From positions 17,486,001-17,550,000 of the forward strand of contig OZ076409.1 of NCBI GenBank assembly GCA_964187785.1: a stretch of DNA of 64,000 nucleotides, written 5' to 3'. The notes below the pieces were generated by a model that was given only the letters and a program-made list of their open reading frames with translations, made no database searches and was not told where the DNA came from. This stretch comes from Amphiscolops sp. MND2022 (Eukaryota). Made by a program: the position numbers and the translations under genes. Of this stretch, positions 35,301 through 60,104 are shown piece after piece (the first letter of the stretch is position 1; every line of letters begins with the position of its first letter).

Positions 35301-35750
35301 TCCATTTGTATTTCTGACGAAATGGTGAGTTTTTCAGTAAACTGTTAAACTGTAAAAGCCATGCCGCTTTGATCTCCATTGCTCAGCAAAATATAGCAAC
35401 ATTTAAGTCCAAATATCCTACAATTGTCACTGATTCAACTATCTAATTTGGTCACAAATTGCTAACTACAAATTTTTCAAAGTGCTGCTTAGTGTCAGAA
35501 AAATGTTTGATGTTTGCGAACTAAGCAAAAGATGGGAATATAATTTTTTGGTTAAATTAACTGAAATTTGAGTTCGTCTAAAGTTTATGACTAAGTTCAA
35601 ATTGTTAGAGCTTTTATCGTTCTGAAACTCTTTGTAATCTTTTCAACCCTTTGAATTGTCTGATTTTGAATCGGCTCCAAATAAGAAACTGAACACGTCA
35701 TTTTGTGGCCATGAGCAATACATTGCATGTATCAATATGGCATTGAGTCA

Positions 35751-37597
35751 TGTCGCAGGCTGCCGCCTGTGACGGCACGACAGTAACTACTTCGGCAGTT
35801 GGTCAAGAATACGTGCCCGGAACCTTACCTATTTATTAAGAACTTACAATCGATATCAAACTTTCACGCCATTTTGTTATTTTGTGCATTATGGTCATTG
35901 ATGACGCTCATTTTATATACAATTAGTCTGTTAAATCTAACAATTGGAAATTTCAATCGAGTTGATGGAGTTGTAAGGCGCTAATTTAAAGCGATAGAAA
36001 ATACAATGAAACGAGCGACTGTAAGGCAGTATAGGAAACGAGTTCAAGTGACGTACGGCAATGTACCGGCAGCGTCACTTGAGCACGTTACCTTAACCAA
36101 TCATATCGCAGTATGCAATCTCGTTTGTTGTTGCTATTTAATTAATGGCCGAGTAAGGCCAGTTGCCGCGTTTTTAATATTCTCTTTTGGTACACTGGTC
36201 AAATGGCCGGTTCCGTCCCATTAGTTCAAGACTGAAATAAGGTGATAATTTAACATGAAACAAGTCATGTTTGTTGAGTTTGTGTTTTCATAATAGCCAG
36301 ATCTCTGTTCATAACTGATGCTTCGCCTTAATACTCAACCTTTTGCTAGGCCCTTAAGGCCATATTTCATTAGTACTTGCCTATTAATTAGCCGGCTATT
36401 TCCGGCCATTGAGATTGTTACGTTCCTTTGAAAAGTGATGCAGTACATATATTTGGGGCTAATCGGTTAATCAACGCATATAATTATTAATATGGCAATT
36501 GGCCGTATTAGGCCTAATAACATGATGTGCTTCACACTGTTGCAAAGCTAATTTTAGGTCACGTGGTGGCACGTGCCTGAAAGGAATGTGTGCAATGTTA
36601 TTTATATTCATGATGAGTACTAGTTCCTTTGATAGACGGAAATTTCATTTGATGCACTAGTAAATATTTTGATGCCGCCTTTGATGAATGAATAGTTGTG
36701 ATTGTAAAATGTTAGGAATTTTCCCAATCGGGACATCACCCTAAAATAGTTGCTTTGAAGTATTAATACCCGATGCCGTAATAATATTTGTCACATGACC
36801 CGTTGAGGACATAACCACATGATATTATCTTGATCAAAGAATCCGTGGAATGTAAGTGTCATCTTTCAGGAGTATATATAGTTACTTTCCTGCAAAGGGA
36901 CACACAATTTCCATAACCTTGCTTTGATAAAGATTGATTTATTACAACGACGTTTGTCAGTTTTCCGGTTTTAATAATTGAATTATTCAACCCGGTTCAG
37001 TTTCAATGCCTACCACAAGGAAACAAAAGAAAGCGAGAAAATCAAGAGAGGCAGAAATGTTGTCAGATATTGAGAATTTAGACATAATGCTTGGAGGAAC
37101 TCATTATAATAGAAATGAAAGAAGTGAGAGTCTAAATAGCAACCAGGCCAGAAGACCTGGTAGTCCTTTTGGCGACGAATTTGAAAATGAGGATGAAAAT
37201 AGGTTATCTAACTCTGAGAACAATGGACCTAGTCCAAATGCCGAACTAGGCCAGAACTCAGCTAGAGGTAGTTCTAACGCCGAGATCAACAGACTGTCGA
37301 GTGAGTTGAATTCCCGTATATCTCGGGAGATGGATGAGATGATGAACAGCGTCAGTGTGCAGATTCAAAGAGCTATAAGTGAGGCAATTAGTAATCAAGT
37401 TCTTCCCCAGATTCAAAATGCCCTTATGACCGATTCTGGACATATGACCAAAGAGAGATGGAACGTTCCGTCTGAGAGACCGGAAGGATATTCTGAAGTT
37501 CTGCGTAATTCGGACTCAAGAAACAATTTGAAGAGTAAGACACTTGGTGACCGTCAGAAGGACGGATTCACATTACCGGACACCCGTGCTTACGACA
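35751..37597 (+). repeat. 5' LTR (1847 bp)
   Basis: Matches 50187-52033. Five substitutions seen by eye (35759, 36175, 36999, 37100, 37295). TATA-like TATATATA near 36873. Confidence 0.97.
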
Positions 37598-38727
37598 TGG
37601 TGACAGGAGAAAACGAATCTCCAATTGAAGTTCCTGAGTTTCTCACAGGACGAATGCCATCCACTAGTCATCTCAACAGATCCTGTGATGACCTTCCGCT
37701 GCTCGACACGACGATCCCAGCACAAGAACGACCCGCTCTGGCATCAGAACAAGACCCCATCAACAGGCTAGCAGATGTTTTGACTAGTATGCAGAACCGT
37801 CCAACGGCCCAACAACTCACTATCCGCCCAGTCAACTCCAACACAATGACATTCGACGGAAAAAGTGAGAAGTTCGAGCTGTTTGAGGATTTATTCCATA
37901 CGATGATCAAGATGCAGCCTGAGATGACCGAACAAATGAAAATCAATCACTTCCATTCCTTGCTGCGAAAGAATGCACTCCAAACATTCAGAAACATCAG
38001 CAACGCCAATAGACAAACTCTTGAGGATGTACTTGTCATTTTCAGACGAAAGTACGTCAAACCCGAATCTCAGGCAACTGCAAAACATAAATGGCATCGC
38101 CTAGTCTTTGACCCTAACACGACCAAATTGCCAGACTTTCTTGAAGAGCTTAACCAAGGAGCAGAAAAGGCCTTCGGAGACAATGCCCAAAAAATGATCG
38201 ACAGTCTCCTATATGCAAAACTGCCACCAAAGCTCAAAAGATCAGTCAACATGGCTAGACTAGAGAATGGCTCTTACGATGAAATTGTCGCTCATCTAGA
38301 ACGAGAACTGGAACTGAATGCACTTGAAGAGTCTGACGACCTGCCCATAGCATCAATGACATCTTCGATTGGCAAGACAAAAACTGTTCCTTCCAACGTA
38401 CAGATGAGTGATATAACGTGCAATTATTGCAAAGAAAAGGGCCATATGGTCAAAGATTGCGAGAAATTGAAGAAGAAAAAAGAAAAAGATGCCCAACAAG
38501 GCAAACAGCCTCAGAAAAAGACGTACCCGGAGTGTGGCACTTGTGGTAAAAAGAACCACCCAGAAGAAAGATGTTGGCAGGGTGCTGGTGCACATCTCAA
38601 ACCCAAACGCACCAGACCAGATGACGCCAATGACGGTAAACCCAATCCAAAGGCGCAGAAACCACAAAACAAATCAACATCTTCCAACTCACAAACCTCA
38701 TCTTCCAATGATGAGTCAAAAAACTAA
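37006..38727 (+). CDS. gag: Gag, 573 aa, starting within the 5' LTR
   Basis: Capsid-like TFDGKSEKFELFED region, and two CCHC knuckles CNYCKEKGHMVKDC and CGTCGKKNHPEERC. Confidence 0.92.
   Translation: MPTTRKQKKARKSREAEMLSDIENLDIMLGGTHYNRNERSESLNSNQARRPGSPFGDEFENEDENRLSNSENNGPSPNAELGQNSARGSSNAEINRLSSELNSRISREMDEMMNSVSVQIQRAISEAISNQVLPQIQNALMTDSGHMTKERWNVPSERPEGYSEVLRNSDSRNNLKSKTLGDRQKDGFTLPDTRAYDMVTGENESPIEVPEFLTGRMPSTSHLNRSCDDLPLLDTTIPAQERPALASEQDPINRLADVLTSMQNRPTAQQLTIRPVNSNTMTFDGKSEKFELFEDLFHTMIKMQPEMTEQMKINHFHSLLRKNALQTFRNISNANRQTLEDVLVIFRRKYVKPESQATAKHKWHRLVFDPNTTKLPDFLEELNQGAEKAFGDNAQKMIDSLLYAKLPPKLKRSVNMARLENGSYDEIVAHLERELELNALEESDDLPIASMTSSIGKTKTVPSNVQMSDITCNYCKEKGHMVKDCEKLKKKKEKDAQQGKQPQKKTYPECGTCGKKNHPEERCWQGAGAHLKPKRTRPDDANDGKPNPKAQKPQNKSTSSNSQTSSSNDESKN
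37598..37615 (+). promoter_or_regulatory. Putative PBS (inside the gag reading frame)
   Basis: TGGTGACAGGAG directly after the LTR-terminal ACA. The tRNA was not identified. Confidence 0.6.
38718..38724 (+). promoter_or_regulatory. -1 ribosomal frameshift slippery site A AAA AAC
   Basis: X XXY YYZ heptamer immediately before the gag TAA. The -1 frame is open from here into pol. Confidence 0.85.
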
Positions 38728-41700
38728 CTTCGCCACGACTCCAATACAACCAACTAATATCTGTCCGACAATACATCAGATCGGACCCTCCAACGCAAAT
38801 TTTTCACCAATACAATCAACAATTGATGGGCTATCCTTCTGTTGTCTGGCAGCAACAAATGGAAAAAGCTACCATTATTACTTACAATAATACCCATTTG
38901 TTCCAAAAACCAATTCCTGTATGGGACCCTGATTACACATCCGCTTTCAATAGCCGATTCAGGCCCATTCCCTTGATAGACAACTACAACCCTACCTACA
39001 TCGATCCTGACTATGGACGAGATCCCTATTGGGATACCGAACTTTACAACCAGGATTTGTTACAATTCCAATACGTTATCGATGATATCGAACTCTATAA
39101 TAGATCAATCCATGACAATCCACCAATCACCCACAACAAGAAAACCAGAGCATTGATTGAAACATGGCAGATGAACGATGGTACAAGCCATCCGGTGTTC
39201 CCAAACCCCTTAGGGACCGAGACCTTAGACAAACCAGAAGAAACAATACCACAGTCACTACTTGACGAACGTCAGTTCCAAAACATCCTCATTACCAGAG
39301 AAGGTGAACCAGACTGTATACCCCTGTCTACCAACATAAACTTGAAATGCAAGAAACGCATGCTATATTTCCCTATGGACTTTGGGGAATTGACCATTGA
39401 TGGACTTATCGACACTGGTGCCTTATCCAGTGCAATCCCCGAAATGGACCTCCGGAAAATTAGACTCCTTTCACCACAATCAGTTATCCGAGAAGGTCCG
39501 CCTCCGAACTTCCAAATCATGGTCGCTAATGGGCAACTGGAAACTCCTAAAAGTACCATAGAGCTCAAATTCGAAGTTGGTGACATTGAGTTCCATGAAA
39601 TCTTCATAGTAATGGAACATCTGACAGGACCAATCATAGGACTAATGTTCCTCCAGCGAAATCATACAGTTCTGGACATGAGGCAAGGAATCCTGAACTT
39701 CCCGTTCTTTTCAATGCAACTAAAAACAGCTGACCATAAATACTCAAACGTGCTAGAACCAATTCTCAACCCTACCGAAATAACCATTCCGCCGAATGAC
39801 AGAGTCCTAATCAGGACCAATTCCCTACTGTACCCCGAGAATGCTGTCACTGGAATTTTACAGCCGAGCGACCTTCTACATGAAGAAGGCGACATCACAT
39901 TCTGCCCAGCCTTGGTCACTCTGAATGACGGCAATATATTGATACCAGTGAACAATTTCACAGACCATCCTTATAAACTTAAAAAGGGATTACATATTGC
40001 CAATTTCTCTGTCATGACGCCAGAGCAAATGAAATACGTCAAACCGGTAGACCCGGCATCAACCTGGCATTTGTTACAAAATGACCAAGAACAAGCAGCC
40101 CATTACGTCAGTAGCCTGATCAAGACAAACAGAAATCCACAAAACACTGAAAATTACTGGTTCCCAACTCCAGAAAACCCTGGAAATCCTGAGGAACACA
40201 CACCCATACAAAAACGAATCCTTCAAGAATTACAGGCCCTACAAGACCTAGAGACTCTTGACCCCACAAAAGACGAAGAATCACGTGCAAAATTCTTAGA
40301 AAACTTTGACTGGAAAGATTCCACCCTTACTCCTGAAGAGAAGGAGAAAATAGAGGAATTGTTAGTGGAATTTCACGACATCGTTGCACGACACCGATTC
40401 GATATAGGCATGAACGAGGACTTCAAGGTGAAACTGACACCTAAGGACGATTCCCCAGCCTATAGTCAAAGTCTTCCAGCTCCTATCAATTTGAAGGAGG
40501 ACATCCTAGTTGAATTAGCCATGTTACACAAATATGGCATCATCACCACTTTACCGTTCTCGAAATACGCCAGCCCAATATTCGCCCAAAAGAAACCAAA
40601 TGGGAAGCTACGACTTTTGGTTGACCTGAGAAAAATCAACAACCTCATCTCGGATGATTATATAAACAATAATCACCCTGTAAGCACCTTGGTTGATGCT
40701 GCCCAACACTTGGCAGGCAAAAAACTATTCTGTAAATTAGACTGTTCGCAGGCATACCATTGTCTACCAATGGCCGACCAACGTTCAATTGAAATGTTGG
40801 CTTTCAATTTTGCCAGTCGCACATTCGCCTACAGACGTCTGGCACAAGGCCTTAGCCGGTCACTATCCGCATTCTCGAGTTTTATGAGAGAATACCTGGA
40901 CAAAGTCATCAAAGCGGATCAGTGTGCCCAGTACGTAGACGATATAGGCATCGCAGCAAATGATGCTGACCACCTCATAGCTAACCTGAGGGCTACATTC
41001 AAATGCATTCAGAAAGCAGGCCTTAAATTGACAATGCATAAATGTCACTTTGGTGCCAAAGAAATTGATTTTCTCGGACGGACTATTACCCCGCAAGGCG
41101 TCAAACCCCAGAAACAAAACGTGCAAAACTTTCTGGAAAAGACCAAGTTCCCAAAGTCGAAAAAGGCTTTGCAGCGCTACTTGGGATTCTTGAATTACTA
41201 CAGAAATTATGTCCCAAGACTTTCAGAACGCCTTGCCCCATTCTACAAGATGCTAAAGAATGACGAAAAGGTCCTGGTATCGAAAGAATTGGTCCAACAA
41301 TTCGAGGAAATCAACAAAGCACTTGACAAATGTTGCGACTTGGCATTACAACAACCCATTCCGAACAAACAAATAGCACTAATGACTGACGCAAGTTTTG
41401 GTGCAGCCGGATACGCGGTCTTAATCGAAGATGACCCGAACCAGAAATTCACGTCACTCAGAAAATCGTATGCACCAGTCGCATACGGATCAAAAATTTT
41501 CACCCCAGCCCAGATAAAGATGTCAATTTATGCAAAAGAATTCCTTGCAATTTACTTTGCATTCAAAGAATTCGGACATATATTCTGGGGTGCGCCGAAA
41601 CCGGTCATCATCCTTACGGACAACAAAGCCGTCACGAGATTTTTCCAAACGAAAATAATACCCCCAGCCCTGTGGAATGCATGTGATTATGTGATTCAGT

Positions 41701-43931
41701 TCAATTTTGTCATAGCACACATCCCGGGGGCACAGAACACAGCAGCTGACTATTTGTCCCGATTGGAGGCAGACCCGAAGGATAAATTAGTCATGAAAAT
41801 CCGTGAGGATGTACAAACTTTACCAATTGAAATCAATGTCCAATCCGCAGGGGTGTCGCAAGAAGAACAAATCTTCTACACCAATGACGACGATGAGACA
41901 GAGGAACAGGCTTGGGCAAGGAAAGAAGCAATCAGGAAAAACCCAGCAATTGATGAGCCCACTGTTACTATACAAACTTTGTCAACAAATCTGGTCAAGC
42001 AACACCCCGATGTACAAGTCCGATTGAGGAAAATGAACCAGATCATCATTGAACAATCCAAAGATACAGTATTACAACAATTGAAGGCGAAACTCCTTCA
42101 TGAAGACTATTCAGAAAACATACTGCAACAAGATGCTCGATATAGACACTATGCAAATAATTTGGAGCGAATCGTACTCAAGGACGAAATCCTGACAAGG
42201 CAATATTTTGATGAAACAGGGAATGTTAAATACCATCAAATTTTGCTCCCACAACACCTACTTCGGGAAGTGCTCCACTCCCTTCATGGGACAGCGCATA
42301 AACATCCCGGGATTTCAAAAATGTTGCAGGAAATCAGACAAAAGTACTACTACCCTAACATGGCAAAACATGTCAAAAAGTGGGTAGAAGGGTGTGAACA
42401 ATGTGCAAAGGACAAACGAGTCCCAAACGCAACAATCACCCCTGAACTACTTAACTTGCCGGAATGGGACCTTGGACCCGAAGACGCCATGCAAATCGAC
42501 TTATTGCCGAATCTTCCCCCAAGTGGAGGATACGAAAATGTTTTAACTGCAATTGATGTCTTCTCTCGATACTTGTTTGCTTATCCTCTTACGGACGCAT
42601 CAGCGATCAATGTAGCTAAAGCAATCATTGATATTATGACCAAACATTCTTACCTACCGACGACGCTCATTACGGACAAAGGAACTGCCTTTACCTCCAC
42701 GATCATTGCGGAAATTACACAGATTTTAGGCATTACCCTAAAATGTGCAACGACGAAACACCCGCAAACTATCGGGAAATTAGAGCGAACGCATGCCTCA
42801 TTGAAAACGAACCTGAAAATGGCATGTGGGGAATATCGCCGACAATGGCATAAATATTTGCCTTTAGCAGTTCTCAATCATAACACTAGTTATCATGCCA
42901 GTATCGGATGCGAACCCACAAGAGTGTTCCATGGGAGAATCCCATACAACATATTGGATCACAAACTTGGAATGAACCCAAATGAGCCAATCCATCCGAC
43001 TACTGAATTTGCCGAAGAAATCCAGAACCGGACCAAACTCCTTATTGACAAAACAAAGCAGAACATCATGCAGTCATATATCAAATATAAGGAGTATTAC
43101 GACCGAAAAGCAAAAGCCGCCCCACTCAAAGAGGGCGATTACTGTTTTGTATTACAGCCGAAAGCGGATCATCAAGGATCAAAAATTCCATTCAGGGATT
43201 ATCGTTGGGTTGGACCGTTTATAGTCCAGAAGACCTTACCTAATGAGAATTACATCGTCCGCAGGCTTAATACAAATAAAACGCAGATATTGCATCGAAT
43301 TCGTCTCAAAAAGTTTGTTCCAAATCAGCCACTTGAGGACAATTTCCGAGAACAGCGTCTACAGCCGGATGACGAAATAATCATTCCGCAAGACGACTTG
43401 TATGTAATAACGTGGGAAACAAACTTTGGCGAACAGCTAGATACACGAGGCAGCGAGCCTATTCCGGCCAGCTTGACGAATGACGGACAGCCGAGTACGG
43501 CAGAAACGAATGCGAGTGACGCAAGCGAGAATGAAGTTGATTATGTAATCACGAGCGACGAATCAAATCTCACTGACCGCGCGTCGCATAGACGGAATGA
43601 ACGACTAATTGATGACGTCACTAAAAGAAATGAAGCTACTGAAGCTATTAGAAATGAAGTATTTGATTGGCCGAATCCGGCCGTCTCCCCAAAAACCCAA
43701 GAAAAATCTTCGCCGGATATGGCAAATGGACCAAACGACGATGAAAATTTTCCAGAAAGAAATTCATCGAATGAAAGCGATGCACAAAATTCTCCAAATA
43801 GGGGGGATGATATTATCGTGCCCGAAATATCTGAAAACGATGCTAGAAATGAAAGTCTGAGCCCTAGAGGAGGGAAATATAATCTCAGGCCTAACCCTAA
43901 CCCAAACTACTCAGAAGACTTCAGATACTAA
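38724..43931 (+). CDS. pol: Pol polyprotein (protease, dUTPase-like spacer, RT, RNase H, integrase), reached by -1 frameshift
   Basis: LIDTGA (~39411), YASP/LRLLVDLR/YVDD (~40932), MTDAS..YAKE..TDNK..AADYLSR, HGTAHKH..CEQC, IDL..TDKG..KLER. No stops. Confidence 0.96.
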   Translation, partial: LTSPRLQYNQLISVRQYIRSDPPTQIFHQYNQQLMGYPSVVWQQQMEKATIITYNNTHLFQKPIPVWDPDYTSAFNSRFRPIPLIDNYNPTYIDPDYGRDPYWDTELYNQDLLQFQYVIDDIELYNRSIHDNPPITHNKKTRALIETWQMNDGTSHPVFPNPLGTETLDKPEETIPQSLLDERQFQNILITREGEPDCIPLSTNINLKCKKRMLYFPMDFGELTIDGLIDTGALSSAIPEMDLRKIRLLSPQSVIREGPPPNFQIMVANGQLETPKSTIELKFEVGDIEFHEIFIVMEHLTGPIIGLMFLQRNHTVLDMRQGILNFPFFSMQLKTADHKYSNVLEPILNPTEITIPPNDRVLIRTNSLLYPENAVTGILQPSDLLHEEGDITFCPALVTLNDGNILIPVNNFTDHPYKLKKGLHIANFSVMTPEQMKYVKPVDPASTWHLLQNDQEQAAHYVSSLIKTNRNPQNTENYWFPTPENPGNPEEHTPIQKRILQELQALQDLETLDPTKDEESRAKFLENFDWKDSTLTPEEKEKIEELLVEFHDIVARHRFDIGMNEDFKVKLTPKDDSPAYSQSLPAPINLKEDILVELAMLHKYGIITTLPFSKYASPIFAQKKPNGKLRLLVDLRKINNLISDDYINNNHPVSTLVDAAQHLAGKKLFCKLDCSQAYHCLPMADQRSIEMLAFNFASRTFAYRRLAQGLSRSLSAFSSFMREYLDKVIKADQCAQYVDDIGIAANDADHLIANLRATFKCIQKAGLKLTMHKCHFGAKEIDFLGRTITPQGVKPQKQNVQNFLEKTKFPKSKKALQRYLGFLNYYRNYVPRLSERLAPFYKMLKNDEKVLVSKELVQQFEEINKALDKCCDLALQQPIPNKQIALMTDASFGAAGYAVLIEDDPNQKFTSLRKSYAPVAYGSKIFTPAQIKMSIYAKEFLAIYFAFKEFGHIFWGAPKPVIILTDNKAVTRFFQTKIIPPALWNACDYVIQFNFVIAHIPGAQNTAADYLSRLEADPKDKLVMKIREDVQTLPIEINVQSAGVSQEEQIFYTNDDDETEEQAWARKEAIRKNPAIDEPTVTIQTLSTNLVKQHPDVQVRLRKMNQIIIEQSKDTVLQQLKAKLLHEDYSENILQQDARYRHYANNLERIVLKDEILTRQYFDETGNVKYHQILLPQHLLREVLHSLHGTAHKHPGISKMLQEIRQKYYYPNMAKHVKKWVEGCEQCAKDKRVPNATITPELLNLPEWDLGPEDAMQIDLLPNLPPSGGYENVLTAIDVFSRYLFAYPLTDASAINVAKAIIDIMTKHSYLPTTLITDKGTAFTSTIIAEITQILGITLKCATTKHPQTIGKLERTHASLKTNLKMACGEYRRQWHKYLPLAVLNHNTSYHASIGCEPTRVFHGRIPYNILDHKLGMNPNEPIHPTTEFAEEIQNRTKLLIDKTKQNIMQSYIKYKEYYDRKAKAAPLKEGDYCFVLQPKADHQGSKIPFRDYRWVGPFIVQKTLPNENYIVRRLNTNKTQILHRIRLKKFVPNQPLEDNFREQRLQPDDEIIIPQDDLYVITWETNFGEQLDTRGSEPIPASLTNDGQPSTAETNASDASENEVDYVITSDESNLTDRASHRRNERLIDDVTKRNEATEAIRNEVFDWPNPAVSPKTQEKSSPDMANGPNDDENFPERNSSNESDAQNSPNRGDDIIVPEISENDARNESLSPRGGKYNLRPNPNPNYSEDFRY

Positions 43932-44172
43932 AGATTGAATTCTTCCCGAAAATGGGAGTTCTTTCTTATTATCTTTTTCTGTTTTTTTTTAAGTCCCTCT
44001 GGTATCTTTGAATAAATAATGGGACGAACGAAGGACCCCTCTCAAAATAAATACGGGGGCGAAAGATACAAACAATGAGGAAACAGAAATCAAGGGCAAA
44101 CGAAAGAATAAATACAACAAAGAAATTAACAAAGTTTACAGTTCGTAAGTACATAAATACATATGTACATAA

Positions 44173-47100
44173 TCAGGCCTTAGTGGAGGAATCCTTACTG
44201 GGGCTCCCAGCAACAGAGGAAGCAGACGATCGTGAGCCGCTCCTACCTCTCCTTCGCTTTTTACAACTGGGAAACTTCACAGCAGACTGATCACACACAG
44301 TACTGCTCTCTCCCAAATCTTCCTGGACTGAAACCCGTTTTGGAGCAGACTCAGCCTTGCGGTAAGTGGACAAGAGGGATTTGTAAATTCCCGACCGACC
44401 GAAAGTATCCACATAGGCCCAAGGATCATAGTCGGAAGAGAAGGCAGAACGACCAAACGATGTGGAGAGAGTCGAAAATTTGGCCAGATTGGAGTCCTCG
44501 CTGCTCCGGACGACAGAACCAATGACATTAGCCATATAACTCTGACAAGGCAGGATAAGGTCAGTGAACCGGCTCTGTCCACCAGCGGTAGTAACTCCCC
44601 CAAAGACGACATCTGGATAGCTGGGACTGGTGACGGTCGTACACAAACAGCTCAATTTGAAGAGGTATAAGAGATGGGAACGTTCATGGAGAAACTCGAG
44701 CCCCATCAGGAACTCGATCAAATCGGCAGACGTACTGGTGATGTCGAAATCAGGCCCGTAGGCGGTTCGGAGGTGATCCAATAGCTGGATATATTGATCC
44801 CGACACTGGGACTCATTTGAATCGTCCACCCAAGATCGGACTGCGAAGCTACTGTACAACACCTCGAAATGTCGTAAGGCTACATCCATTGGCCTCTTCA
44901 GCATAATAAAGGGGTCAAAAGCAGCAAGCCCCTTCACCAGATTAGTGCTGAGCCCAGTTCTTTGATGGATCCCATTGATTACAAACTGGATGTAATGCTG
45001 GCTATCCTTGACGAAATCAGTCTTTACCGTCTCAGCAGTAGCTTGTATGGCAGCGCGCTCTGACTTCTTGCCGAAATGAAGACCTTCGGCTCTTGCTTTG
45101 CATGCGGCTGAAACCTTACTCGCTAGCTTAAGCCGGACAAGGTACTCGTCTCCTGAAAGGAAAGTGGCCTCACTCGTCTGAAAGCGCAAGAGGAGAAACC
45201 AAGCGTTTGCTAGGGGCGCAGTGTCAGGGGTGTATATACGGGAACAGAGCAGGCTGAGAAATCGGCTTACTTCTCCACACAAGTAGAAGGATGAATCGCG
45301 TCGATACTGTAGATTGACTGAGAAACTGGTGACGACTGAAAACAAAACTGTTGTCCAAATCAGGATGATAGACCCTCACTAAGGCTGCGACAGATTATAC
45401 TTACAATCGTTGACGATCCTACTGAAGAATTCCAGTTTGACGACGAAGAATTCGTCGCATATCACCGACCACTCAAAGCTCTGCACCTGAAACAAGACTA
45501 TCATCAACCCTGTGGTAAAACTGGACCCTACCGATCAGATGAAGAAAATTGGTCTATATTCTCATGTGACTTAAAGGAGAAAAGATGAGATCTAACCCTT
45601 CCTCGGGATCCTTGACCTTCTTGCAATGGCGCATGTGTGGTCAGGTACCGCACCACGTTTTTCCATTCGGCGATGAGTTCTCGACAAAGAACAGGCAAGG
45701 TTGTCACTTCGAGCTTACAACTGGTCACAGCCTGGAAAGTACAATAAAGCCGCATGAGGATTCCAGACGAATAAGATGAAAGAGCCCTATATAAGCCTAT
45801 GACTCCGATGAGAGAAATGCAAGGAAACTACTTACTTTGGTAAGTTCTGGGCTGCGGAGAACCCAATCTTCCATGAGGGACCCACCCAGAGAAACCATCA
45901 AGGCTTGAAGGACGGAGAAGAAGTCTATCTTCCCAAAAACACTATAACTCGTCTTGTGCAGGAGATTGGGCAGGCTGAAGTGTTCGAAGCGCAGACAGCT
46001 TTGAACCCCCTGTTTGTAGTACTGTGACTCGTCGATGGCCCTGGGTAATTCAGAGTGACATCCAGAACAGGCCACGATCCCAGGTTTGGTAGATATGGCA
46101 GAGAGGAGTCGGGACAAAGACCCAAGTTCTCCTGTCACGTCTGTAGTGATCTGTGAGCTGCGGCATATGAAGACTCTACAAAGCTCAGAGCCATTCCAGA
46201 ACTTGATGGACATGTGCTTGTAGACTCCTTTGGTCTCGAACTCAAGAGCGAAGCACTGCTGAGTGTTGACATTCTCTGCTATGTCCTCAAGGCAACAGAC
46301 GAAGAAGTGTTGGAAGATCGCCTAGAAACAAAACCTTTTGAAACCTTAGAAGGAATGGAACCTAAGTGGATGAAACGAACAAATGCTTACCGACAATCTC
46401 TCTTCTCCCCAATCAAAGTCGTTGAAGGTAGCCTGATGATTGGTAAATGACCCCATCCGGGACCACAGATTTCGCAGAACCGTCAGATCTCCTTGGCTCT
46501 TGATGAAATCTCCAACCAGGCAGAGCTGAGTCTTGGTGCGAGATTCCGGGGTAACCAAAGCAGTGGTCGATCCTTTGACGAAGTCCTCATAAAAGGGGAA
46601 GCGTTCTCCTATGTCCACAAGCTCAACGTGGATAAATTTGGGCAGCTCCTTAGCCAGCTCAACTTTGGACAACAACTTCCCATTGCCACCTCTGACTCTG
46701 TGTTGCACCTTCCCTGTCACCGGATCCGTGCTCCGCAAATGTTCATAGCGCCAGCGTTGGTCGCGTCGCAGATGGCGCTCCGTTCGGTGGTGTCTCAATA
46801 TCTCGTAAGGGCCCTTGGACTTGATGGAGAAGTTCTTCTTGCAGATATGACACCAAACCATATGAGGATTATGGAGTGGGTCAGCAGGGCCTGAAATGAA
46901 GGACCTGGTCCATCCGATCTTTGCGAAGAACTCTTCTCGCATAGGGACACCTCGTTTGGAGAGATTCCGGTTGCCTCTCTTCTTCTTGGACTTGGACGAA
47001 CCGGCAGCGGCACGTTCTAGGACCTGGTCCCTGACTTCAAGGAGCGTGGCATCTTGACTGCTGTATTCTGGAGTATCAGCCTGAGAATCCAAGCCAGACG

Positions 47101-48397
47101 CCTGCAGAACTAGCGGACCATGCGTCTCAGCGGGTTTCTTGAAGGACTTCGCTATCAAATCCAGCTCAGTAGCATTGTCGCTTTCCCCATAATATGAGGA
47201 ATCTCCAGTGTCTTCCGAACTCGACGATCCGGCAACCCTCTCCCTTGACGTGACTTCCCCTTCAGAGTCACTCCCACTAGAGTCTCCAATACTACTGGGA
47301 CCCGGTGTCTGAGCCCGCCTCCCTGCAAAGAAATGAGCAGTTCGCGATGGGGCGACAGTAGGTTTTCCACGGACTGCATCTGTGACCATTTGTTCCATGG
47401 TCGAAAAAGACCGGCTGAGAGTCTCGTCAGTGAGGACTCTAAGGAGATGGTATACCTGTGGCTCAGTAAATGACACAGTGGTATGACCTACTGGAAGTCG
47501 TACAGAGGGGGACTCGTCAAAGTATTCTTTGAGGATAGCCCGACTTCTACCCGAGAGGTGGGGTGGTTCCCGGTGGGACTCAGCCTGTCCAGGGGCCTGT
47601 CCACTAGTACCAGGGACAAGAAGTTCCGAAGTGGCCTCATCTCCTCCTTCAGTTTCAGAGGCATGTGCGAAGGGAGTGTAACCATACAAGGCCACAGGAA
47701 CCACCACGCTAGATTGGTCAGTAGCTCCTTCATCCCCACTAGGGTCAGTTAGGTACCGAATTTTGCATTCTCCTCCAGGAAGTGGGGGAGCGTCACCAAT
47801 GGATGATGCGGCATCGTAGTCCTGATGTGTCAGGGTGTCACTCTCAACGTTGGCATCGGATTGGGTAACATCCACAAGTTCAGCCAGTTGGGACCCAGAA
47901 CTCTCGACCACTCGCAGAGCAGACTCTAGGGCTGACAAATTAGCTGTTGGGGCCTCCCCCATTTCGGTAACCAAAGGGGTGCTTGCCCTCCTAGTCTCCC
48001 CAACGTTTGAGGCGGACGAATCTTCCTGGACACCAGGGTCCGTACCCTGACTTGGACCGAGCTGTGTGGCTTCTTGTTGAGTTCGGTCTGATGTCTGAGA
48101 ACTCTCTAGCTGTCGGACCATATTCTCGGCATAAATAGTCACGTCCAAATCACTGTCTGTACTATGAATGGAGGTGGCTTCATCGGGTCGACTTTCATTC
48201 TTCTTTCCGTCAGGATGGATGCTGGGTGTGGTTTGGGACGTATCAGGATGTGGGATTTGCGATCCCATCTCAGTTGGAAGACTAACTATCGGGACAGTTG
48301 TAGAAGGGTTGGCTGATGTGCTGGCAATTTCAGTTGTCTGATTCTCTAAACGAAAAGAGATAAAGTTTGGCGGTATGCTTCCTCGAAAAGAATCCAT
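44173..48397 (-). CDS. Predicted five-exon antisense cargo gene, ~1290 aa, hAT-transposase-derived zinc-finger protein. Exons: 48397-46391, 46321-45836, 45731-45597, 45486-45405, 45335-44173
   Basis: Four GT-AG introns (69, 104, 110, 69 bp) join the separate minus-strand ORFs in frame without stops. BED-like finger CHIC...RHHRTERH at 46772-46855. The C-terminal half resembles the hAT fold by eye. Confidence 0.75.
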
Positions 48398-49492
48398 TCT
48401 ACCGCATTAGAAATCTTCCGGAAGTACTTGAGAATTTGAACAAAATGTGCTATCACGCGCTTATTAGTGGAAACAGGAAGCTTATTATGAACGAAGTCTA
48501 GCCCTGATCAAGTTAAACTAGTTCAATATATGAAAATCAGACCAACCTGGGTTCGAAGACATGTTCCCTCAGTGTTGTTGTTCCAACGGAAGTTGTTTGT
48601 GCTGAGAAGAAGACTTTGTAGAGCTGAATTGACTACGACAGGGACAAAAGGAAATCTGGGATACTCCGGAGAGGAGAGCTGGAGGAAGCAGTTGTGTAGT
48701 TGTGGACACACAAGGATGAATGACGGTTAGATAAATACAAATAGCAGAAGCAGATATGAATGATCAGAAATGGAATTGGTTTAGAACTTTAATGTAAAGG
48801 AATTGAAGAGTTGGAGTTCGTGGCTGAAGATTATTACCAGACTAATATTATGGGATTATTTACATATTTATTCTGTACATGGAATCTGCCAGCGAAATGT
48901 ACAAAGATTATTTCATTATTTACAACTTATGGAATTATTGGCCGGTTACGGCCGTTTACCCTATTTCGGTTCACCATCTCGTTCCATTTTGTTTGTTGTC
49001 CTAATTGGGACTTCCGTTATTTTAGTTACTCAAATTGTTTTTTCCGCCATTTTGAATTATTTTAATTGATCATTTTCGCCATTTTATTATTCATTTTTCA
49101 AATTTATCAAAGCTCGAATTTGATTGGCTGGAGCCATTTTAGTAGGCTTTATCTGACGCGTGTCGTTAATTGCTATCAAGCTTGATGTTAATTACCCTCT
49201 TGAAGTGGAGTTATTTGTTGTTGTTAACTTAACACCTCTCTGACTACCTACTTGAGAAGGTGGGCTCGGGGGGCAGCGTTCCGATATTCAAAGGGCGAAC
49301 CGCCGCTGAGAAACCCCATTCAGAAAAGTTTACGACGGATCAGACCGATTAGCCAAAGATTTTGCCGCTGAAACGAAACCCCGGGAAAACGGCCCGAGTC
49401 GGCCTGAGGAAAGTTTTATAAATTCATTCAACTTCGAATCTCACTTGCAACTAGTTGCCTTCATAAACTTCAAAATAGCTAAAAAATTCATC

Positions 49493-50275
49493 ATGGATAA
49501 ATACGCAAAATCTGGAAAGCTCTTCGAGATGGCTGAACTGGACTCAGACTCATCAGGCGATTCAGTCATTTACATAAGCAGCGATGAGGAAACCTCAGTT
49601 GATTTGGACTCAGACTGGTCGACGGACACGGACGAAATGATCAGAAGGGTGGAGAAGCAGGTAGTGTCCAGCCCCATTCTAATTGCCGGACGTGTCATGA
49701 CGACTAGCAGTATGGAGGAAGAAATGGTCGCAGGACCAAGCACCAGGCAGCCGGGGCAAGATGTGACTCCCAAGTTAGACACAAAATACTTTGATCACGA
49801 AAGGTGCTATGCCCCGTCAAAGAGAGCGGAGAAATCACGAATTGAGCTCTGCAAGACGCTGCTGCCAGTGCTAGAATCACCGATGTCTCCACCAATCCAC
49901 GAGAGGGGGCCAAGCCAAGACACTCCTCTGGTCCAGCCCGCAGTAAGTGATTTTCATGTGTCTTATCACGTGCAGAACTCGGTGCCCTACCAAAATGTCA
50001 GCGAGACCCAATATACTGGGTGTATGGTTTGCGGCCGCTCTGTGGATGCAATTAAGAGTGAGAGAGTCAGATGGTATATGGAACGATCCACCCCAAGGAA
50101 TGAGCCCGAGCACATCACGAAGTTGAGGAAAGAAGCCTACGAGAATGGGCTTAATGCGGGATGCTTCCTTTTCATAACACCCGCAGTGTCGCAGCCTGCC
50201 GCCTGTGACGGCACGACAGTAACTACTTCGGCAGTTGGTCAAGAATACGTGCCCGGAACCTTACCTATTTATTAA
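49493..50275 (+). CDS. Unknown cargo ORF, 260 aa, acidic/Ser-rich N-terminus and a CMVC motif; ends 89 nt inside the 3' LTR
   Basis: Long, relatively GC-rich ORF in good ATG context (TCATCATGG), with TATAAA ~75 nt upstream. No family recognised. Confidence 0.65.
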   Translation: MDKYAKSGKLFEMAELDSDSSGDSVIYISSDEETSVDLDSDWSTDTDEMIRRVEKQVVSSPILIAGRVMTTSSMEEEMVAGPSTRQPGQDVTPKLDTKYFDHERCYAPSKRAEKSRIELCKTLLPVLESPMSPPIHERGPSQDTPLVQPAVSDFHVSYHVQNSVPYQNVSETQYTGCMVCGRSVDAIKSERVRWYMERSTPRNEPEHITKLRKEAYENGLNAGCFLFITPAVSQPAACDGTTVTTSAVGQEYVPGTLPIY

Positions 50276-52033
50276 GAACTTACAATCGATATCAAACTTT
50301 CACGCCATTTTGTTATTTTGTGCATTATGGTCATTGATGACGCTCATTTTATATACAATTAGTCTGTTAAATCTAACAATTGGAAATTTCAATCGAGTTG
50401 ATGGAGTTGTAAGGCGCTAATTTAAAGCGATAGAAAATACAATGAAACGAGCGACTGTAAGGCAGTATAGGAAACGAGTTCAAGTGACGTACGGCAATGT
50501 ACCGGCAGCGTCACTTGAGCACGTTACCTTAACCAATCATATCGCAGTATGCAATCTCGTTTGTTGTTGCTATTTAATTAATGGCCGAGTAAGGCCAGTT
50601 GCCGCGTTTTCAATATTCTCTTTTGGTACACTGGTCAAATGGCCGGTTCCGTCCCATTAGTTCAAGACTGAAATAAGGTGATAATTTAACATGAAACAAG
50701 TCATGTTTGTTGAGTTTGTGTTTTCATAATAGCCAGATCTCTGTTCATAACTGATGCTTCGCCTTAATACTCAACCTTTTGCTAGGCCCTTAAGGCCATA
50801 TTTCATTAGTACTTGCCTATTAATTAGCCGGCTATTTCCGGCCATTGAGATTGTTACGTTCCTTTGAAAAGTGATGCAGTACATATATTTGGGGCTAATC
50901 GGTTAATCAACGCATATAATTATTAATATGGCAATTGGCCGTATTAGGCCTAATAACATGATGTGCTTCACACTGTTGCAAAGCTAATTTTAGGTCACGT
51001 GGTGGCACGTGCCTGAAAGGAATGTGTGCAATGTTATTTATATTCATGATGAGTACTAGTTCCTTTGATAGACGGAAATTTCATTTGATGCACTAGTAAA
51101 TATTTTGATGCCGCCTTTGATGAATGAATAGTTGTGATTGTAAAATGTTAGGAATTTTCCCAATCGGGACATCACCCTAAAATAGTTGCTTTGAAGTATT
51201 AATACCCGATGCCGTAATAATATTTGTCACATGACCCGTTGAGGACATAACCACATGATATTATCTTGATCAAAGAATCCGTGGAATGTAAGTGTCATCT
51301 TTCAGGAGTATATATAGTTACTTTCCTGCAAAGGGACACACAATTTCCATAACCTTGCTTTGATAAAGATTGATTTATTACAACGACGTTTGTCAGTTTT
51401 CCGGTTTTAATAATTGAATTATTCAACCCGGTTCTGTTTCAATGCCTACCACAAGGAAACAAAAGAAAGCGAGAAAATCAAGAGAGGCAGAAATGTTGTC
51501 AGATATTGAGAATTTAGACATAATGCTTGGAGGAAATCATTATAATAGAAATGAAAGAAGTGAGAGTCTAAATAGCAACCAGGCCAGAAGACCTGGTAGT
51601 CCTTTTGGCGACGAATTTGAAAATGAGGATGAAAATAGGTTATCTAACTCTGAGAACAATGGACCTAGTCCAAATGCCGAACTAGGCCAGAACTCAGCTA
51701 GAGGTAGTTCTAACGCCGAGATCAACAGACCGTCGAGTGAGTTGAATTCCCGTATATCTCGGGAGATGGATGAGATGATGAACAGCGTCAGTGTGCAGAT
51801 TCAAAGAGCTATAAGTGAGGCAATTAGTAATCAAGTTCTTCCCCAGATTCAAAATGCCCTTATGACCGATTCTGGACATATGACCAAAGAGAGATGGAAC
51901 GTTCCGTCTGAGAGACCGGAAGGATATTCTGAAGTTCTGCGTAATTCGGACTCAAGAAACAATTTGAAGAGTAAGACACTTGGTGACCGTCAGAAGGACG
52001 GATTCACATTACCGGACACCCGTGCTTACGACA
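50187..52033 (+). repeat. 3' LTR (1847 bp), including a truncated copy of the gag N-terminus (ORF 51442-52053)
   Basis: Direct repeat of 35751-37597, followed by the AGTCA TSD. Confidence 0.97.
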
Positions 52034-52398
52034 AGTCACAGACAGAAAAATGATGATTTTTATCTGACAATGAGAAGTTTTAAAATCAAAACACATTAGC
52101 ATAATCGGGAGAATTTGGGGGCGTTTTTTGCTAAGAAGTTTTGGAAAGTTTTTTTCAACTTCCTAAAAAATTGGGGGTGAATGCATTTCTGAATAAATTT
52201 GACCAAAAGTTCAACTTCTGTAATTGCGGTCGAAGAAAATGATATAAACAATTTTTCCAGGTTGACACTTTCATTATGGAGTTTCAAGAAGTTTAGATTT
52301 GAATTTTGTTAAGCAAGGGAGTAGCGTACAATACTGTAAACTTTATATGTACAATTGTATAAAAAACTGAATTTTCGCAAAAAGCGAATGGGAAAAAT

Positions 52399-53107
52399 AA
52401 CAAGCCGGGACCGGCCCAAGTCGGCGCCATATCCAAGGCTCAAAAATAGGAAAAGGACTTCCAAGTGTCATTTTACAGTACTCGAAAATCGAAAAAGCAA
52501 AAAATATAAACCAAGTGGCGCGCCGGGGCCCGCTAGCGCGAGCCCCTGGCGCGCTAAAAGGGGGACACTTCCGAAATTGTCAACATTTTTGTCGCAGTTG
52601 AAGGGGGACCCTTTGGAGAAAAAACAAATTTTCGAAAAAAAAGTCTCACAATGCCGAAAAACTGAAAGGGGGACCTTTTGGGGTTTTTCAACATCCATTC
52701 TGTCGCAAAACATAAAAAACTTGAAGAAGGGAAAATTTTTATTTTCGGGAAAAAAATCTCACAGTGCCGAAAAAAATCGAAAGAGGGGACCTTTCTGGAT
52801 TTTCCAACATCCATTCTGTCGCAAAACAGCAAAAAAATTGAAGGGGGACCCTTCGGGAAAAATTTTTTTCCGAAAAAAAAGTCTCGCAGTGCCGAAAAAA
52901 ATTGAAAGGGGGGACCCTTTGGTCTCACCCGGTATGGTATGTTACAGGAAAAACTTTTTTGGTTCAGTTCGTTAGACCAAATAGTGAAATTTGGTGCAAT
53001 AATATTTTGTAGAACTTTTAAGAACTATTTTGATCAGTTCGTGCGGATTGAAAAAAAAAGAAAAGCCACTATAATAATTGCGTTTCACTTCATTAAGCGC
53101 CGACTAA
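52399..53107 (-). mobile_element. HINE (Helentron-type non-autonomous element)
   Basis: Sub-TIR AGTCGGCGC (52419) / GCGCCGACT (53097), terminal hairpin GCCGG-GA-CCGGC (52404-52415), internal GGGGGACCC tandem units, and T/A-run insertion context. Confidence 0.72.
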
Positions 53108-54265: not shown

Positions 54266-56262
54266 TCACAATTTCATTATTGTTTCGTTATTTTCAAAGA
54301 ATGCCGAAAATTTGTTGATCACTTTCTGGCGTTCTGATTGGCTGTTTTCGGCCAATTGTATTCTACCGATTGTTAGTTTGAACAGTCCATCCCAAGTAAA
54401 GGTGCCATATCTGTTCTTTCGGTTATTAGAACTTCCAATTTTTTTTGTTATTCTCGCATTCCCGTATTCCACGTCTTCCGGAATCTTTCCTCGGAATTTT
54501 ACTTTGTTTTTGTTCACATCTTGGTATCTGTTTGTGATCTTTTGTTTTCCGGGTAATTTCAGTATCTTTTCATCCAGTGGCATTATCGTTATCGGTGATC
54601 CGGTATCAATTATGCATTCTTTCTTTGTCCAGTTTATCTTCACTAATGCCGTGTAGTGTTTGTTCATTTCTTCGATTTTCTTCATTTCTTTTGATATGGT
54701 GTATACTTTTTTCTGATTCTTTCGATGTTTTGTCCCGGTCATCGGTTTCTTCTTCGGTTACTCTTTTCACTTTTCTGTTTTTTTTGTGTATTTCTGTTTA
54801 CACACTTTTGCGTAATGCCATTTTTCCCGCAATTCTTTCAGTTTGTTTCTAATGCTGGTCACTTATGTAATCATATGCACAAAATCTGCACGGTCTGTTT
54901 CCTGTCGATGTAGTTTTTAGGCGGTGCATTCCGTAGAACAACACAGACTATAGTGGTGACTTTTCTTTTTCTAGTCGGCGTTTTTCGTAGTGACTTTTCT
55001 TTTTTTCTTTCTTTTTTTAAGACCAACGAAGTCACTACTTTATAAGCTGGCTTCCACTAACTGCAACAGTAATGTAGCTTCTTCTGCTTCTGATGTTGTG
55101 GATTTTTTGAGGTCTGCCAAGCAGAAGGACGTGGATTCGAGTCTCGACGTTGACCAATATTTTTTTGTGCCGGTTATTTCGGCTTTGTGAGACTTTTTTT
55201 GCAAATTATTTCATTGGTCTCCCTTCAATTTTTTCCTATTTTGCAAGAGAAAGGATGTTCAAAAAGTCCCACAGGCCCCCCTTTTACGTTTTTCGGCACT
55301 ATGCAACTTACTGGAGACCAAAGAAATTTTCGAAAAAATTTTTTAAAAAATTCGGAAACTTCTTTCACTTTTTCCCCATGTGGTACTGTAGAAGAGAATA
55401 CTTGACTCTTTGAAGTCATTTTGCTATTTTTGAGCCTTAGATATGCCTCCGATTTGGGCCGTTTCCGGCTTCTTGGCTCGCACCGAATTTTTCCATTCCT
55501 TGCATCGGTTCTTCGTTGAATGTGTGCCTTTGCTTTGCGGAAATTAACGCCTCCGGTATCGTATTTTTCTTGTTTTTTTTCGTATGTGTCTTGTTTGATT
55601 ATTTCGATCGTCTTTTTCAGTTTTAGTGTCTTTTCTCTCATCATTTTGTCCCGTATTTTTTCCTCGATGATTGCTGTCATATATTTGGATATCGAAAGTT
55701 CTTCGGTTGAGATTGCGCTGAAATTACACTCGTTTTTCGATTTCGATCAGTCTTCTCCGGAATTTTTCGGGTGTCTCTTCTTCCGTTTGTTTTGCCTAAA
55801 AGAAATCTCCACGGTTGTCGTAAGTGTTCCGCTTCGGTAAGTAGTACTCGGTGAATAACCGAATTAAATGTTCAATTTTGATACTTTCCGGTTCCGCTTT
55901 ATATTCGCCACGGGCTATTTGGTACAGCGTTTCGGGTCCAACTCCCCAGATGAAGTCTTCCTGGACTAGTTGTTCTTTTCCGCTCCATCCGGAATTGGTC
56001 ATGTCTTCTGTTTTTATTAGTGGTGTAATGTCTATTTTAGTAAACTGTCGAAATCGCTCTAACCACTGTTTCGGTGTGATTATTGCCTTTCCATCCGAAG
56101 CCCTTGCTTCTAGGTTCGGTATAGGGTTTGTTGCTGACATGTTTCTAATTTAGGAAGGTTTCATTTTGTTTAAAATTTGGCTGACTGCGCCTTGTTCTAT
56201 TCTCACTAACTATCAATTTTAGATATAAGAGAATGTGGTAAGAGAATATCTATAGTTCACCA
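54266..56262 (-). pseudogene. Decayed Gypsy gag-protease with PBS
   Basis: Gag-like PKQWLERFRQF and protease IIDTGSPITI. On the minus strand, ...TTACA GT TGGTGAACTATAG (LTR end at 56265, then PBS). Interrupted by a HINE. Confidence 0.75.
54916..55474 (+). mobile_element. HINE copy inserted in the decayed Gypsy gag
   Basis: 5' TAGTCGGCG (54972; degenerate copy at 54916) and 3' TTTTGAGCCTTAGATATG...GGGCCGTTTCCGGCTTCTT. Confidence 0.62.
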
Positions 56263-56803: not shown

Positions 56804-57348
56804 TTAGTCGGCGCATTTTAGTAGAAAATGTGCCCGACTCTTACAGTGGGTAGTTTTTTTTAGACGCGTAAGGTCCACTTTTTTGTTCATTTGTTCAACA
56901 GCGTCAAACCTCAACAACTTTGAACCTCAACAACTCGAACCTCAAAAGCGCCCAAAACGAAAAGAAGAAACAAAACAGACGTCCAGAACCTCGAAATCAC
57001 ACTAAGGATCCCCATAGCCCCACGTTTTTTCAGCACTATGCGACTTTTTTTGAAACTTTTTGGATTGCACCATAGGGTCCCCCCTTCATTTGTTTCGACA
57101 TTTTGCAACACAATGGATGTCAAAAAATCCCAAAGGGTCCCCCCTTTTACATTTTTCAGCACTGTGACATTGTTCAAAAATCTCATTTTAAATTTTTTTT
57201 GGGAAATTTTTTCAAGTCCCCAGAGGGCTCCCCTTTAATTTTTTTCATATTTTGAAACCAGCTGGAGTTTCACAAAGCCCGAAGGGTCCCCCCTTTTACA
57301 ATTTTGAGCCTTAGATATAGCGCTGACTTTGGCCGTTCTCGGCTTGTT
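56804..57348 (+). mobile_element. HINE copy
   Basis: 5' TTAGTCGGCGC; 3' GCGCTGACTTTG-GCCGttctCGGC-TTGTT; internal GGGTCCCCCC units. Confidence 0.72.
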
Positions 57349-59549: not shown

Positions 59550-60075
59550 GAGGACAAAATACATGCGGACATATTAAAAGGGGACAAGATACCATGAAGT
59601 CTAGACATCAGAAAATACTAGACAGTCAGAAAACCCAGGCGACAAAATACCAGAAATAAACAATGGCGCGTGAAAGCAGGGCAGAATTACAACAATTGAG
59701 CAAAGTTAAGGAGAGCGGGAATAACGTCTAAGGCCAAGTCATGCTCATTCCCTATCTTAAAACATTGAATTTTAGACGTTATTCCTTTAGATGTTATTCC
59801 CGAAACACTTTTAGACGTTATTCTTTAGACGTTATTCTAAACTATATTGCTACTAAAGTTAACAATGAAGTATTTCGTTGATTATTGAGTTACAATATTG
59901 CTTGTATGCATTGAATGCTTCATTTCGTCAAAACCAGCCGCTGATAAAGAATGGCACCTCGCTCCGCTTCGCTCGGCTAGAAGTTTACGGTGCTGGTATT
60001 TTGTCCTTGTGGTATTTTGTTCCTATGTATTTTGACTTTGTAGTAGTTTGTCCTCTGGTATTTTGTCCTGACACC
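59550..60075. mobile_element. Decayed MITE with inverted GGACAAAATACC / GGTATTTTGTCC subterminal repeats, containing copy 2 of the TTAGACGTTATT MITE (59714-59838)
   Basis: The motif occurs several times in forward orientation at 59550-59655 and in reverse at 59994-60070, ending CCTGACACC. Confidence 0.55.
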
Positions 60076-60104
60076 AGAAGTATATATGGCGATATTATGA
60101 ATAA

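Follow-up and report, generated by a model that had tools for sequence, protein, structure and literature searches.

A conserved, intron-containing antisense gene in a Ty3/Gypsy retrotransposon of Amphiscolops sp., with a product of putatively transposase-like build

For a long terminal repeat (LTR) retrotransposon, gag and pol are usually considered sufficient, and, to our knowledge, no function has been established for the extra antisense genes that certain Gypsy elements of plants and fungi carry. A gene of this kind is described here from a 64,000-nucleotide (nt) stretch of the Amphiscolops sp. MND2022 assembly (GCA_964187785.1, contig OZ076409.1, positions 17,486,001 to 17,550,000 of the forward strand), referred to below as the window and numbered from its first base, where it forms part of a complete Ty3/Gypsy element of 16,283 bp at 35751-52033. 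In plants, extra antisense open reading frames (ORFs) between pol and the 3' LTR have been described for maize Grande (gene23), rice RIRE2, Silene Retand and Phaseolus PvRetro13 (PMC7264820, PMC11963269). The antisense product of Grande has been reported to be nuclear and an internal antisense promoter has been reported as well, and nearly all Retand clusters are described as carrying a Transposase_28 domain (PF04195) of unknown role (PMC7264820, PMC11963269). Outside plants, brtn is an extra antisense gene of the Boty-like Ty3/Gypsy elements of Botrytis cinerea and Sclerotinia (Zhao et al. 2011, Virology 417:248, as cited in PMC8365987 and PMC7264820). A further precedent among reverse-transcribing elements is HBZ of human T-cell leukaemia virus type 1 (HTLV-1), a spliced antisense gene expressed from the 3' LTR, whose product is described as a nuclear regulator and a small basic leucine zipper (bZIP) factor (PMC10186651, PMC3736048).

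The Amphiscolops gene runs from 48397 to 44173 on the minus strand, between the end of pol (43931) and the start of the 3' LTR (50187), and is tail-to-tail with pol. When its five exons are joined, they give 3882 nt in frame, with the sole stop at the end, and the spliced product from the ATG at 48397 comprises 1290 residues without an internal stop. An initial annotation of this DNA had read four introns and a single frame of about 1290 codons here, and both were borne out, the intron ends lying exactly where it had put them and the frame having 1290 codons. It had also placed the gene between pol and the 3' LTR; the antisense position holds, although a conserved sense ORF (ORF3, 49493-50275) intervenes before the LTR. 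We regard this as a real accessory gene of the Gypsy element, whose product, probably a nuclear DNA-binding protein derived from a transposase, would be kept for the element's own spread.

The minus-strand open frames underlying the gene lie at 44173-45375, 45528-45827, 45797-46321 and 46346-48406 of the window. Exon 1 (46391-48397) provides 669 codons, which encode an acidic N-terminal part of about 480 residues, rich in Ser/Thr, together with a basic stretch, a zinc finger and a linker. After intron 1 (46322-46390; 69 nt, GTAAGC..TCTAG) comes exon 2 (45836-46321; 162 codons), for which a helix, strands 1-3, a helix, strand 4 and a helix are predicted, an RNase H-like order. Intron 2 (45732-45835; 104 nt, GTAAGT..TCCAG), exon 3 (45597-45731; 45 codons), intron 3 (45487-45596; 110 nt, GTTAGA..TTCAG), exon 4 (45405-45486; 82 nt) and intron 4 (45336-45404; 69 nt, GTAAGT..TTCAG) lead to exon 5 (44173-45335), with 387 codons, the stop at 44173-44175 and a predicted all-helical C-terminal region. 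The donor of intron 3 is weak in the window copy (GTTAGA); it is stronger in deeper lineages, where it reads GTAGGT or GTGAGT. An 8-bp unit, TAAGTACA, present in 3.4 repeats at 44146-44172, directly adjoins the antisense stop codon. Neither AATAAA nor ATTAAA occurs on the minus strand within the 575 nt downstream of that stop.

The gene model, with the transcription and splicing that it implies, is carried by comparison among copies. A set of 11 was formed by the window and ten 10-kb stretches around exon-5 matches in the genome that was searched (1929 contigs, 1.07 Gb). All 44 intron copies (11 copies, four introns each) retain their GT and AG ends, while intron lengths vary out of frame (69/70/86/87, 98/101/104, 110/111/112/126 and 68/69/70 nt for introns 1 to 4), which together indicate that the gene is not a product of chance. 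Between subfamilies, the intron cores differ at p of about 0.5 as compared with 0.25-0.29 for exons, that is, about twice as much. In deeper lineages, down to 39% identity, the introns stand at the same positions, intron 4 being much longer in one of them. The first 12 residues of the product are the same in 10 of the 11 copies, and the eleventh has one residue changed. The spliced frame is intact in seven copies and broken in the other four (L024-L027).

The junctions can also be followed in other assemblies, in database proteins called there as plain ORFs, which were aligned to the joined protein. Thus, P0180 aligns without a gap to residues 680-882, spanning junctions 2 and 3; P0011, P0107 and P0041 cross junction 4; and P0174 reads through intron 1 as a 24-residue insert at the exact junction. 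Relatives that lack some of the introns encode exactly the predicted junctions, an independent test of the gene model. 

The gene is an integral part of the element, as the initial annotation had supposed when it set this against a nested insertion. Exon 5 has at least 107 scored matches in the genome (of 7223 first-look candidates), which group at 97-100%, 81-84% and 78% identity; 96 of these 107 are without an internal stop. From the pol end through the antisense gene and ORF3 to the LTR, all ten further copies of the set are colinear with the window, their nucleotide identity to it being 77% to 99%. A genome search with the distant relatives P0107 and P0041 revealed two further, far deeper multi-copy lineages. 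All eight of their loci examined show exons 2, 3 and 5 in their usual order and, shortly downstream, pol on the other strand; exon 5 is 53-59% identical to that of the window in four of these loci and 39% identical in the remaining four. No terminal inverted repeats beyond chance flank the gene, the best flanking pair being 20 nt at 75% among 46 pairs. The 5-bp duplication AGTCA flanks the LTRs and not the gene; the unit moves as an LTR element, as opposed to the terminal inverted repeats and 8-bp duplications of a hAT transposon.

Purifying selection acts on the antisense gene. Among closely related copies, the ratio of nonsynonymous to synonymous divergence (dN/dS) of the whole gene is 0.135-0.169; the N-terminal 480 residues give 0.19-0.30 and the remainder, from residue 481 onwards, 0.076-0.117. 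Comparisons of distant subfamilies are saturated in dS, with a dN of 0.16. In the same copies, 0.03-0.115 was obtained for the C-terminal half of pol, and the antisense gene is thus constrained about as strongly as pol. The earlier claim that the gene is maintained therefore agrees with a dN/dS of 0.14-0.17, not close to 1, and with the open frames counted above. For ORF3, the ratio of nonsynonymous to synonymous differences (pN/pS) is about 0.28-0.3.

The modules of the element show unlike histories. Compared with copy L029, pol has a dS of 0.76 and ORF3 is saturated, with a dS of 0.07 for the antisense gene; compared with L021, pol has a dS of 0.48 and the antisense gene is saturated; and in L033 the C-terminus of pol is 90% identical and exon 5 is 53% identical. 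These divergences point to frequent recombination among co-existing lineages.

The product combines several parts. S, T, E and A abound in its N-terminal 480 residues, which carry a net charge of -35 and are followed by a basic stretch resembling a nuclear localisation signal, KSKKKRGNR (46967-46993, minus strand; residues 469-477), that may serve nuclear import, and by a zinc-finger-like motif, C-x2-C-x15-H-x5-H (46775-46852, minus strand; residues 516-541). The finger is identical in L029; its Cys/His pattern is kept in L021 and L030, where one or two other residues differ, and also in the deeper lineage L032. It finds no match to Pfam zf-BED at E ≤ 1. The Ser/Glu/Thr-rich N-terminus and the basic stretch listed in the initial annotation are, accordingly, present, as is the finger that it called BED-like. 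The model of exon 5, obtained from a 24-sequence alignment, is all-helical, with a predicted local distance difference test (pLDDT) score of 75, exceeding 90 for residues 10-230. That of exon 2, from 112 sequences, gives the succession of helices and strands mentioned above, with a pLDDT of 49.8.

It is likely, as far as these models can be trusted, that the protein has a build of the DDE (Asp-Asp-Glu) transposase type. Among single candidates for its ancestry, hAT is the best, with a chance that we put at close to even. Thus, in a Foldseek search of PDB with the exon-2 model, the hAT transposase Hermes (4d1q_A) ranked second (E 0.038, probability 0.85), and Hermes 8edg_A is the one chain that the exon-2 and exon-5 lists share, its matches being colinear: exon 2 matches Hermes residues 153-264 and exon 5 residues 367-582. 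We take Hermes 151-264 to be the first part of the catalytic core and 265-552 to be the helical insertion domain; on this division, the stretch matched by exon 5 covers insertion-domain sequence and continues into the core again. As in the present protein, the finger of Hermes (PDB 8edg, 4d1q, 2bw3) is N-terminal to the core. Regarding language-model neighbours in Atlas, 25 of 30 for exon 5 are FAM200/GTF2IRD2-like or Dimer_Tnp_hAT sets, and the named neighbours of exon 2 are Transposase_21, Plavaka and RAG1_RNase_H.

A number of results weigh against a transposase-derived product. No exon matches Pfam at E ≤ 1 or E ≤ 10, and 24 family members gave nothing relevant there, with one chance match; the hAT dimerisation domain PF05699 was found in none of these 24 at E ≤ 1, as compared with about 1e-17 for true hATs of the same genome. 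A profile search of PDB gave chance-level matches, the best, at E 0.88, being to Taq polymerase. When aligned by hhalign with a 27-sequence alignment of the window's own DUF659-type hAT (against exons 5 and 2) and with three other hATs of the genome (against exon 5), probabilities were 0.07-0.19%. The exon-2 model is of low confidence, to judge from its pLDDT; neither model has a Foldseek match in PDB at E ≤ 0.001; and in Atlas both queries fall short of the recognition mark of 2300, with values of 1835 and 2110. The canonical DDE triad, CxxH and the hAT dimerisation motif could not be mapped in the protein, just as the initial annotation had found the DDE residues and CxxH unrecognisable. The hAT descent proposed in that annotation is thus weakly supported, by Hermes as best structural match and by hAT-like Atlas neighbours, and no sequence method sees the link; similarly, the comparison by HHpred- or Foldseek-type methods that it had recommended places Hermes second and colinear, but yields nothing at E ≤ 0.001 and at most 0.2% from hhalign. 

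The best local pairings given by hhalign (the helix before strand 1, and YDPW..VD.FGR with YAP..SVDVERSFS) fall in plausible places, but at 0.2% or less they were not counted as evidence. Co-folding of the exon-2 and exon-5 pieces gave a score of 0.00; alignments were not used and the partner fold was uncertain, and this result is evidence neither way.

The alternative that survives best, which we nevertheless regard as unlikely, retains an RNase H-like core and derives it from elsewhere, either from another DDE superfamily (Transib/RAG1-like, CACTA/Plavaka-like, Kolobok or P) or from an old inverted duplicate of the element's own integrase or RNase H, the finger and the helical domains being gained later. 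Against it stands Hermes, the sole chain listed for both models and at colinear positions, in lists where no other eukaryotic cut-and-paste transposase appears; moreover, the 25 neighbours of exon 5 just mentioned are hAT-derived sets. As for the integrase variant, the core is followed by a helical region of some 400 residues, and we know of no integrase that has one.

A second alternative is that the protein is still an enzyme, a nuclease or strand transferase with a variant acidic site that would cut or join DNA for the element, in a hybrid of class I and class II machinery. In its favour, acidic residues are conserved where a catalytic site would lie, and the core is as strongly constrained as pol. 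Thus, in the exon-2 alignment (112 sequences), E27 is present in 77 of 81 and E29 in 79 of 81, both on predicted strand 1; position 91, just after strand 4, is D or E in 94 of 111, and D97 is found in 98 of 111. In the exon-5 alignment, D303 and D309 are nearly invariant near the C-terminus, in the motif YDPW..VD.FGR. However, the first position would be Glu and not the usual Asp; strand 4 is followed in the family by S-G-C, where no residue can be placed at the second Asp; and the structural and hhalign alignments disagree on the place of the third acidic residue. Taking both sides into account, loss of catalysis, as in an inactive transposase, is plausible from the alignments, and a surviving enzyme seems to us rather improbable. 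The same low weight is given to the bolder proposal that a Gypsy clade permanently recruited a hAT-like cut-and-paste transposase and kept it antisense with its introns, perhaps competent through E27/E29, D/E91 and D309. If this were true, it would mean the existence of class I/class II hybrids, with a second DNA-cutting or DNA-joining enzyme, or a transposase-derived targeting factor, working alongside the integrase.

It might also be supposed that each minus-strand ORF is a small gene of its own, or that the antisense sequence is non-coding, the introns being accidental, given that the case for splicing is comparative and that the intron 3 donor of the window copy is weak; this is very improbable in view of the invariably kept GT..AG ends, the out-of-frame length variation confined to introns, the relatives that encode the joined peptide unbroken and a dN/dS of about 0.1 across all exons. 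A one-off nested insertion or captured host gene in the window copy only, which might be suggested by a G+C content of 0.52 in 46001-48000 against 0.42-0.44 in pol, is already refuted by the colinear copies and deeper loci, by the exon-5 matches across the genome and by the lack of flanking inverted repeats beyond chance, with AGTCA flanking the LTRs instead.

The protein family is widespread. When 1.84 billion representative proteins were searched with HMMER, exon 5 retrieved 418 clusters at E ≤ 1e-3 and 98 at E ≤ 1e-30, with identity down to 27%, nearly all of them unannotated fragments of at most 415 residues; exon 2 retrieved 115 proteins, all from ENA assemblies. VKGLAxFDP, FxLSCLCLT, PVQSY and YDPWxxVDxFGR are conserved motifs of the family. 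A word search for full-length relatives, among proteins of more than 677 residues, found none, which is weak evidence, and a search of viral contigs for the DNA context of relatives returned nothing. One candidate relative, the metagenome locus L031, was dropped, since its match covers only 29 residues and it shows none of the other exons, nor gag, pol or ORF3.

Returning to the accessory gene that we favour, its expression could proceed as follows. Transcription would probably start at an internal promoter, situated in the spacer that lies upstream of 48397. A 285-bp block that covers the start codon and about 190 bp upstream of it (48302-48586, minus strand) has 83.9% identity to copies L021-L023, against 77% for the coding parts, which fits a core promoter or 5' untranslated region and makes it a candidate for either. 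The antisense transcript would then be spliced to give the 1290-residue product. Because replication of the element passes through RNA of the opposite strand, where the four introns cannot be removed by splicing, they are retained. The product, with an acidic low-complexity N-terminal half, a stretch like a nuclear localisation signal, a C2H2/BED-like finger, an RNase H-like sheet and a large all-helical region, would have the build of a cut-and-paste DDE transposase, with Hermes as its best structural match. It may enter the nucleus and bind DNA sequence-specifically. Its most likely role would be to regulate the element's transcription or chromatin, either promoting the element's own expression or shielding it from silencing; less likely roles are those of a tether or co-factor for integration, a targeting factor beside the integrase, or an enzyme.

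The host element is bounded by the target-site duplication AGTCA (35746-35750 on the 5' side and 52034-52038 on the 3' side), with LTRs of 1847 bp on the plus strand at 35751-37597 and 50187-52033. Both LTRs have TG..CA ends, and the 5' LTR holds a TATA-like site near 36876. The two LTRs differ at five positions in 1847 bp (99.7% identical), the match ending after offset 1846; self-BLAST reports the direct repeat as 35751-37613 against 50187-52049, with 99.5% identity over 1864 bp. The other genomic copies agree on this limit: their downstream repeat invariably stops at the base equivalent to 37597. A tandem-element reading of the 14,436-bp repeat, in which the repeat includes the gag start, was rejected, since the 3' repeat end is constant among copies and the AGTCA duplication was found. 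The element carrying the antisense gene is young.

ORF1 (37006-38727, plus strand) is gag-like, with Pfam matches to DUF1759 (2.7e-5) and a zf-CCHC knuckle (0.003). The 5' LTR holds its ATG, at 37006, and its first ~197 codons, and because the LTR contains the ORF1 start, the 3' LTR opens a 211-codon frame that runs into flanking DNA (51418-52053). Directly 3' of the 5' LTR stands TGGTGACAGG, the start of a sequence resembling a primer-binding site (TGGTGACAGGAGAAAACG, 37598-37615, plus strand), which is in frame inside ORF1; its assignment as the putative primer-binding site follows from its position and TGG start. The pol gene (38715-43931, plus strand; 1738 residues) is in frame -1 relative to ORF1 and has the Ty3/Gypsy domain order of protease, reverse transcriptase, RNase H and integrase, with Pfam matches to RVT_1 (5.9e-23), RT_RNaseH (4.7e-15), Integrase_H2C2 (3.5e-16) and rve (5.8e-11).

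ORF3 (plus strand, 260 codons) extends 89 bp into the 3' LTR. Each of the eight copies examined has it open, N-terminally truncated in L024, and it has a conserved CxxC pair, a WYM.RSTPR..P block and an acidic Ser-rich N-terminus. It belongs to no Pfam family and has no obvious membrane segment, and for these reasons it is not regarded as env-like. The short motif GCCATTTT, which we take to resemble a YY1-type core, is present in three copies in the spacer separating the antisense gene from ORF3 (49041-49144) and in one copy in the LTR (35868). Tandem or dispersed repeats in the LTR, considered as candidate binding sites, gave nothing convincing, and Rfam and tRNA scans of the window were empty.

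Elsewhere in the window, a true hAT transposase ORF of the DUF659/CGGBP1-like type lies at 12623-14020 on the minus strand, with D155, D204 and the ERxFS motif intact in alignment; the genome has at least 150 PF05699 matches. At 24116-28912 there is a tandem array of about six units of ~800 bp, with 96-97% identity and a higher G+C content (0.46). In the DNA that immediately follows the element, several short dispersed repeats, both direct and inverted (75-91% identity), are found at 52394-53107, 55392-55474, 57076-57350 and 59720-60563, and look like copies of a small non-autonomous element.

With regard to its significance, the case is unusually clear and large, with five exons and 1290 codons kept to 39% identity within one genome, and with hundreds of unannotated relatives in public assemblies that belong to no Pfam family. 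Should a DNA transposase prove to be the ancestor of the core, one class of mobile element would have domesticated the enzyme of another for its own use, and the gene would offer a tractable system for learning what such accessory proteins do. In addition, the antisense introns conserved here are the natural equivalent of those built into reporters for retrotransposition assays.

A comparison with the known systems shows which of these features are shared. The antisense ORFs of plant Gypsy elements, as their published descriptions present them, resemble the Amphiscolops gene in position and orientation, in being found in most copies and in a conservation similar to that of the element's other proteins, and a nuclear or DNA-binding role is suspected for them too (PMC7264820, PMC11963269). 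They differ in having no sequence relation to it, Pfam, including PF04195, being unmatched at E ≤ 1 or E ≤ 10. The main texts of PMC7264820 and PMC11963269 mention no introns, whereas the present gene has four, and the present protein is much larger than the plant ones they describe, with 1290 residues, five exons, a zinc finger and a predicted RNase H-like core. From the citing accounts, brtn is likewise an extra antisense gene inside a Gypsy element outside plants, although the host kingdom differs. HBZ, as described, is also a spliced antisense gene of a reverse-transcribing element; however, it starts in the 3' LTR, whereas the present gene starts about 1.8 kb inside the element and encodes an unrelated, large protein. 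In the literature covered, to which subscription journals and Repbase Reports do not belong, no animal-type Gypsy element with a spliced antisense transposase-like gene was found. The layout itself, an antisense gene in the interval from pol to the 3' LTR, has precedents in plants and fungi; what is new here is the size of the gene, the transposase-like build that its product likely has, the strength of the comparative evidence for splicing and the large unannotated family to which it belongs.

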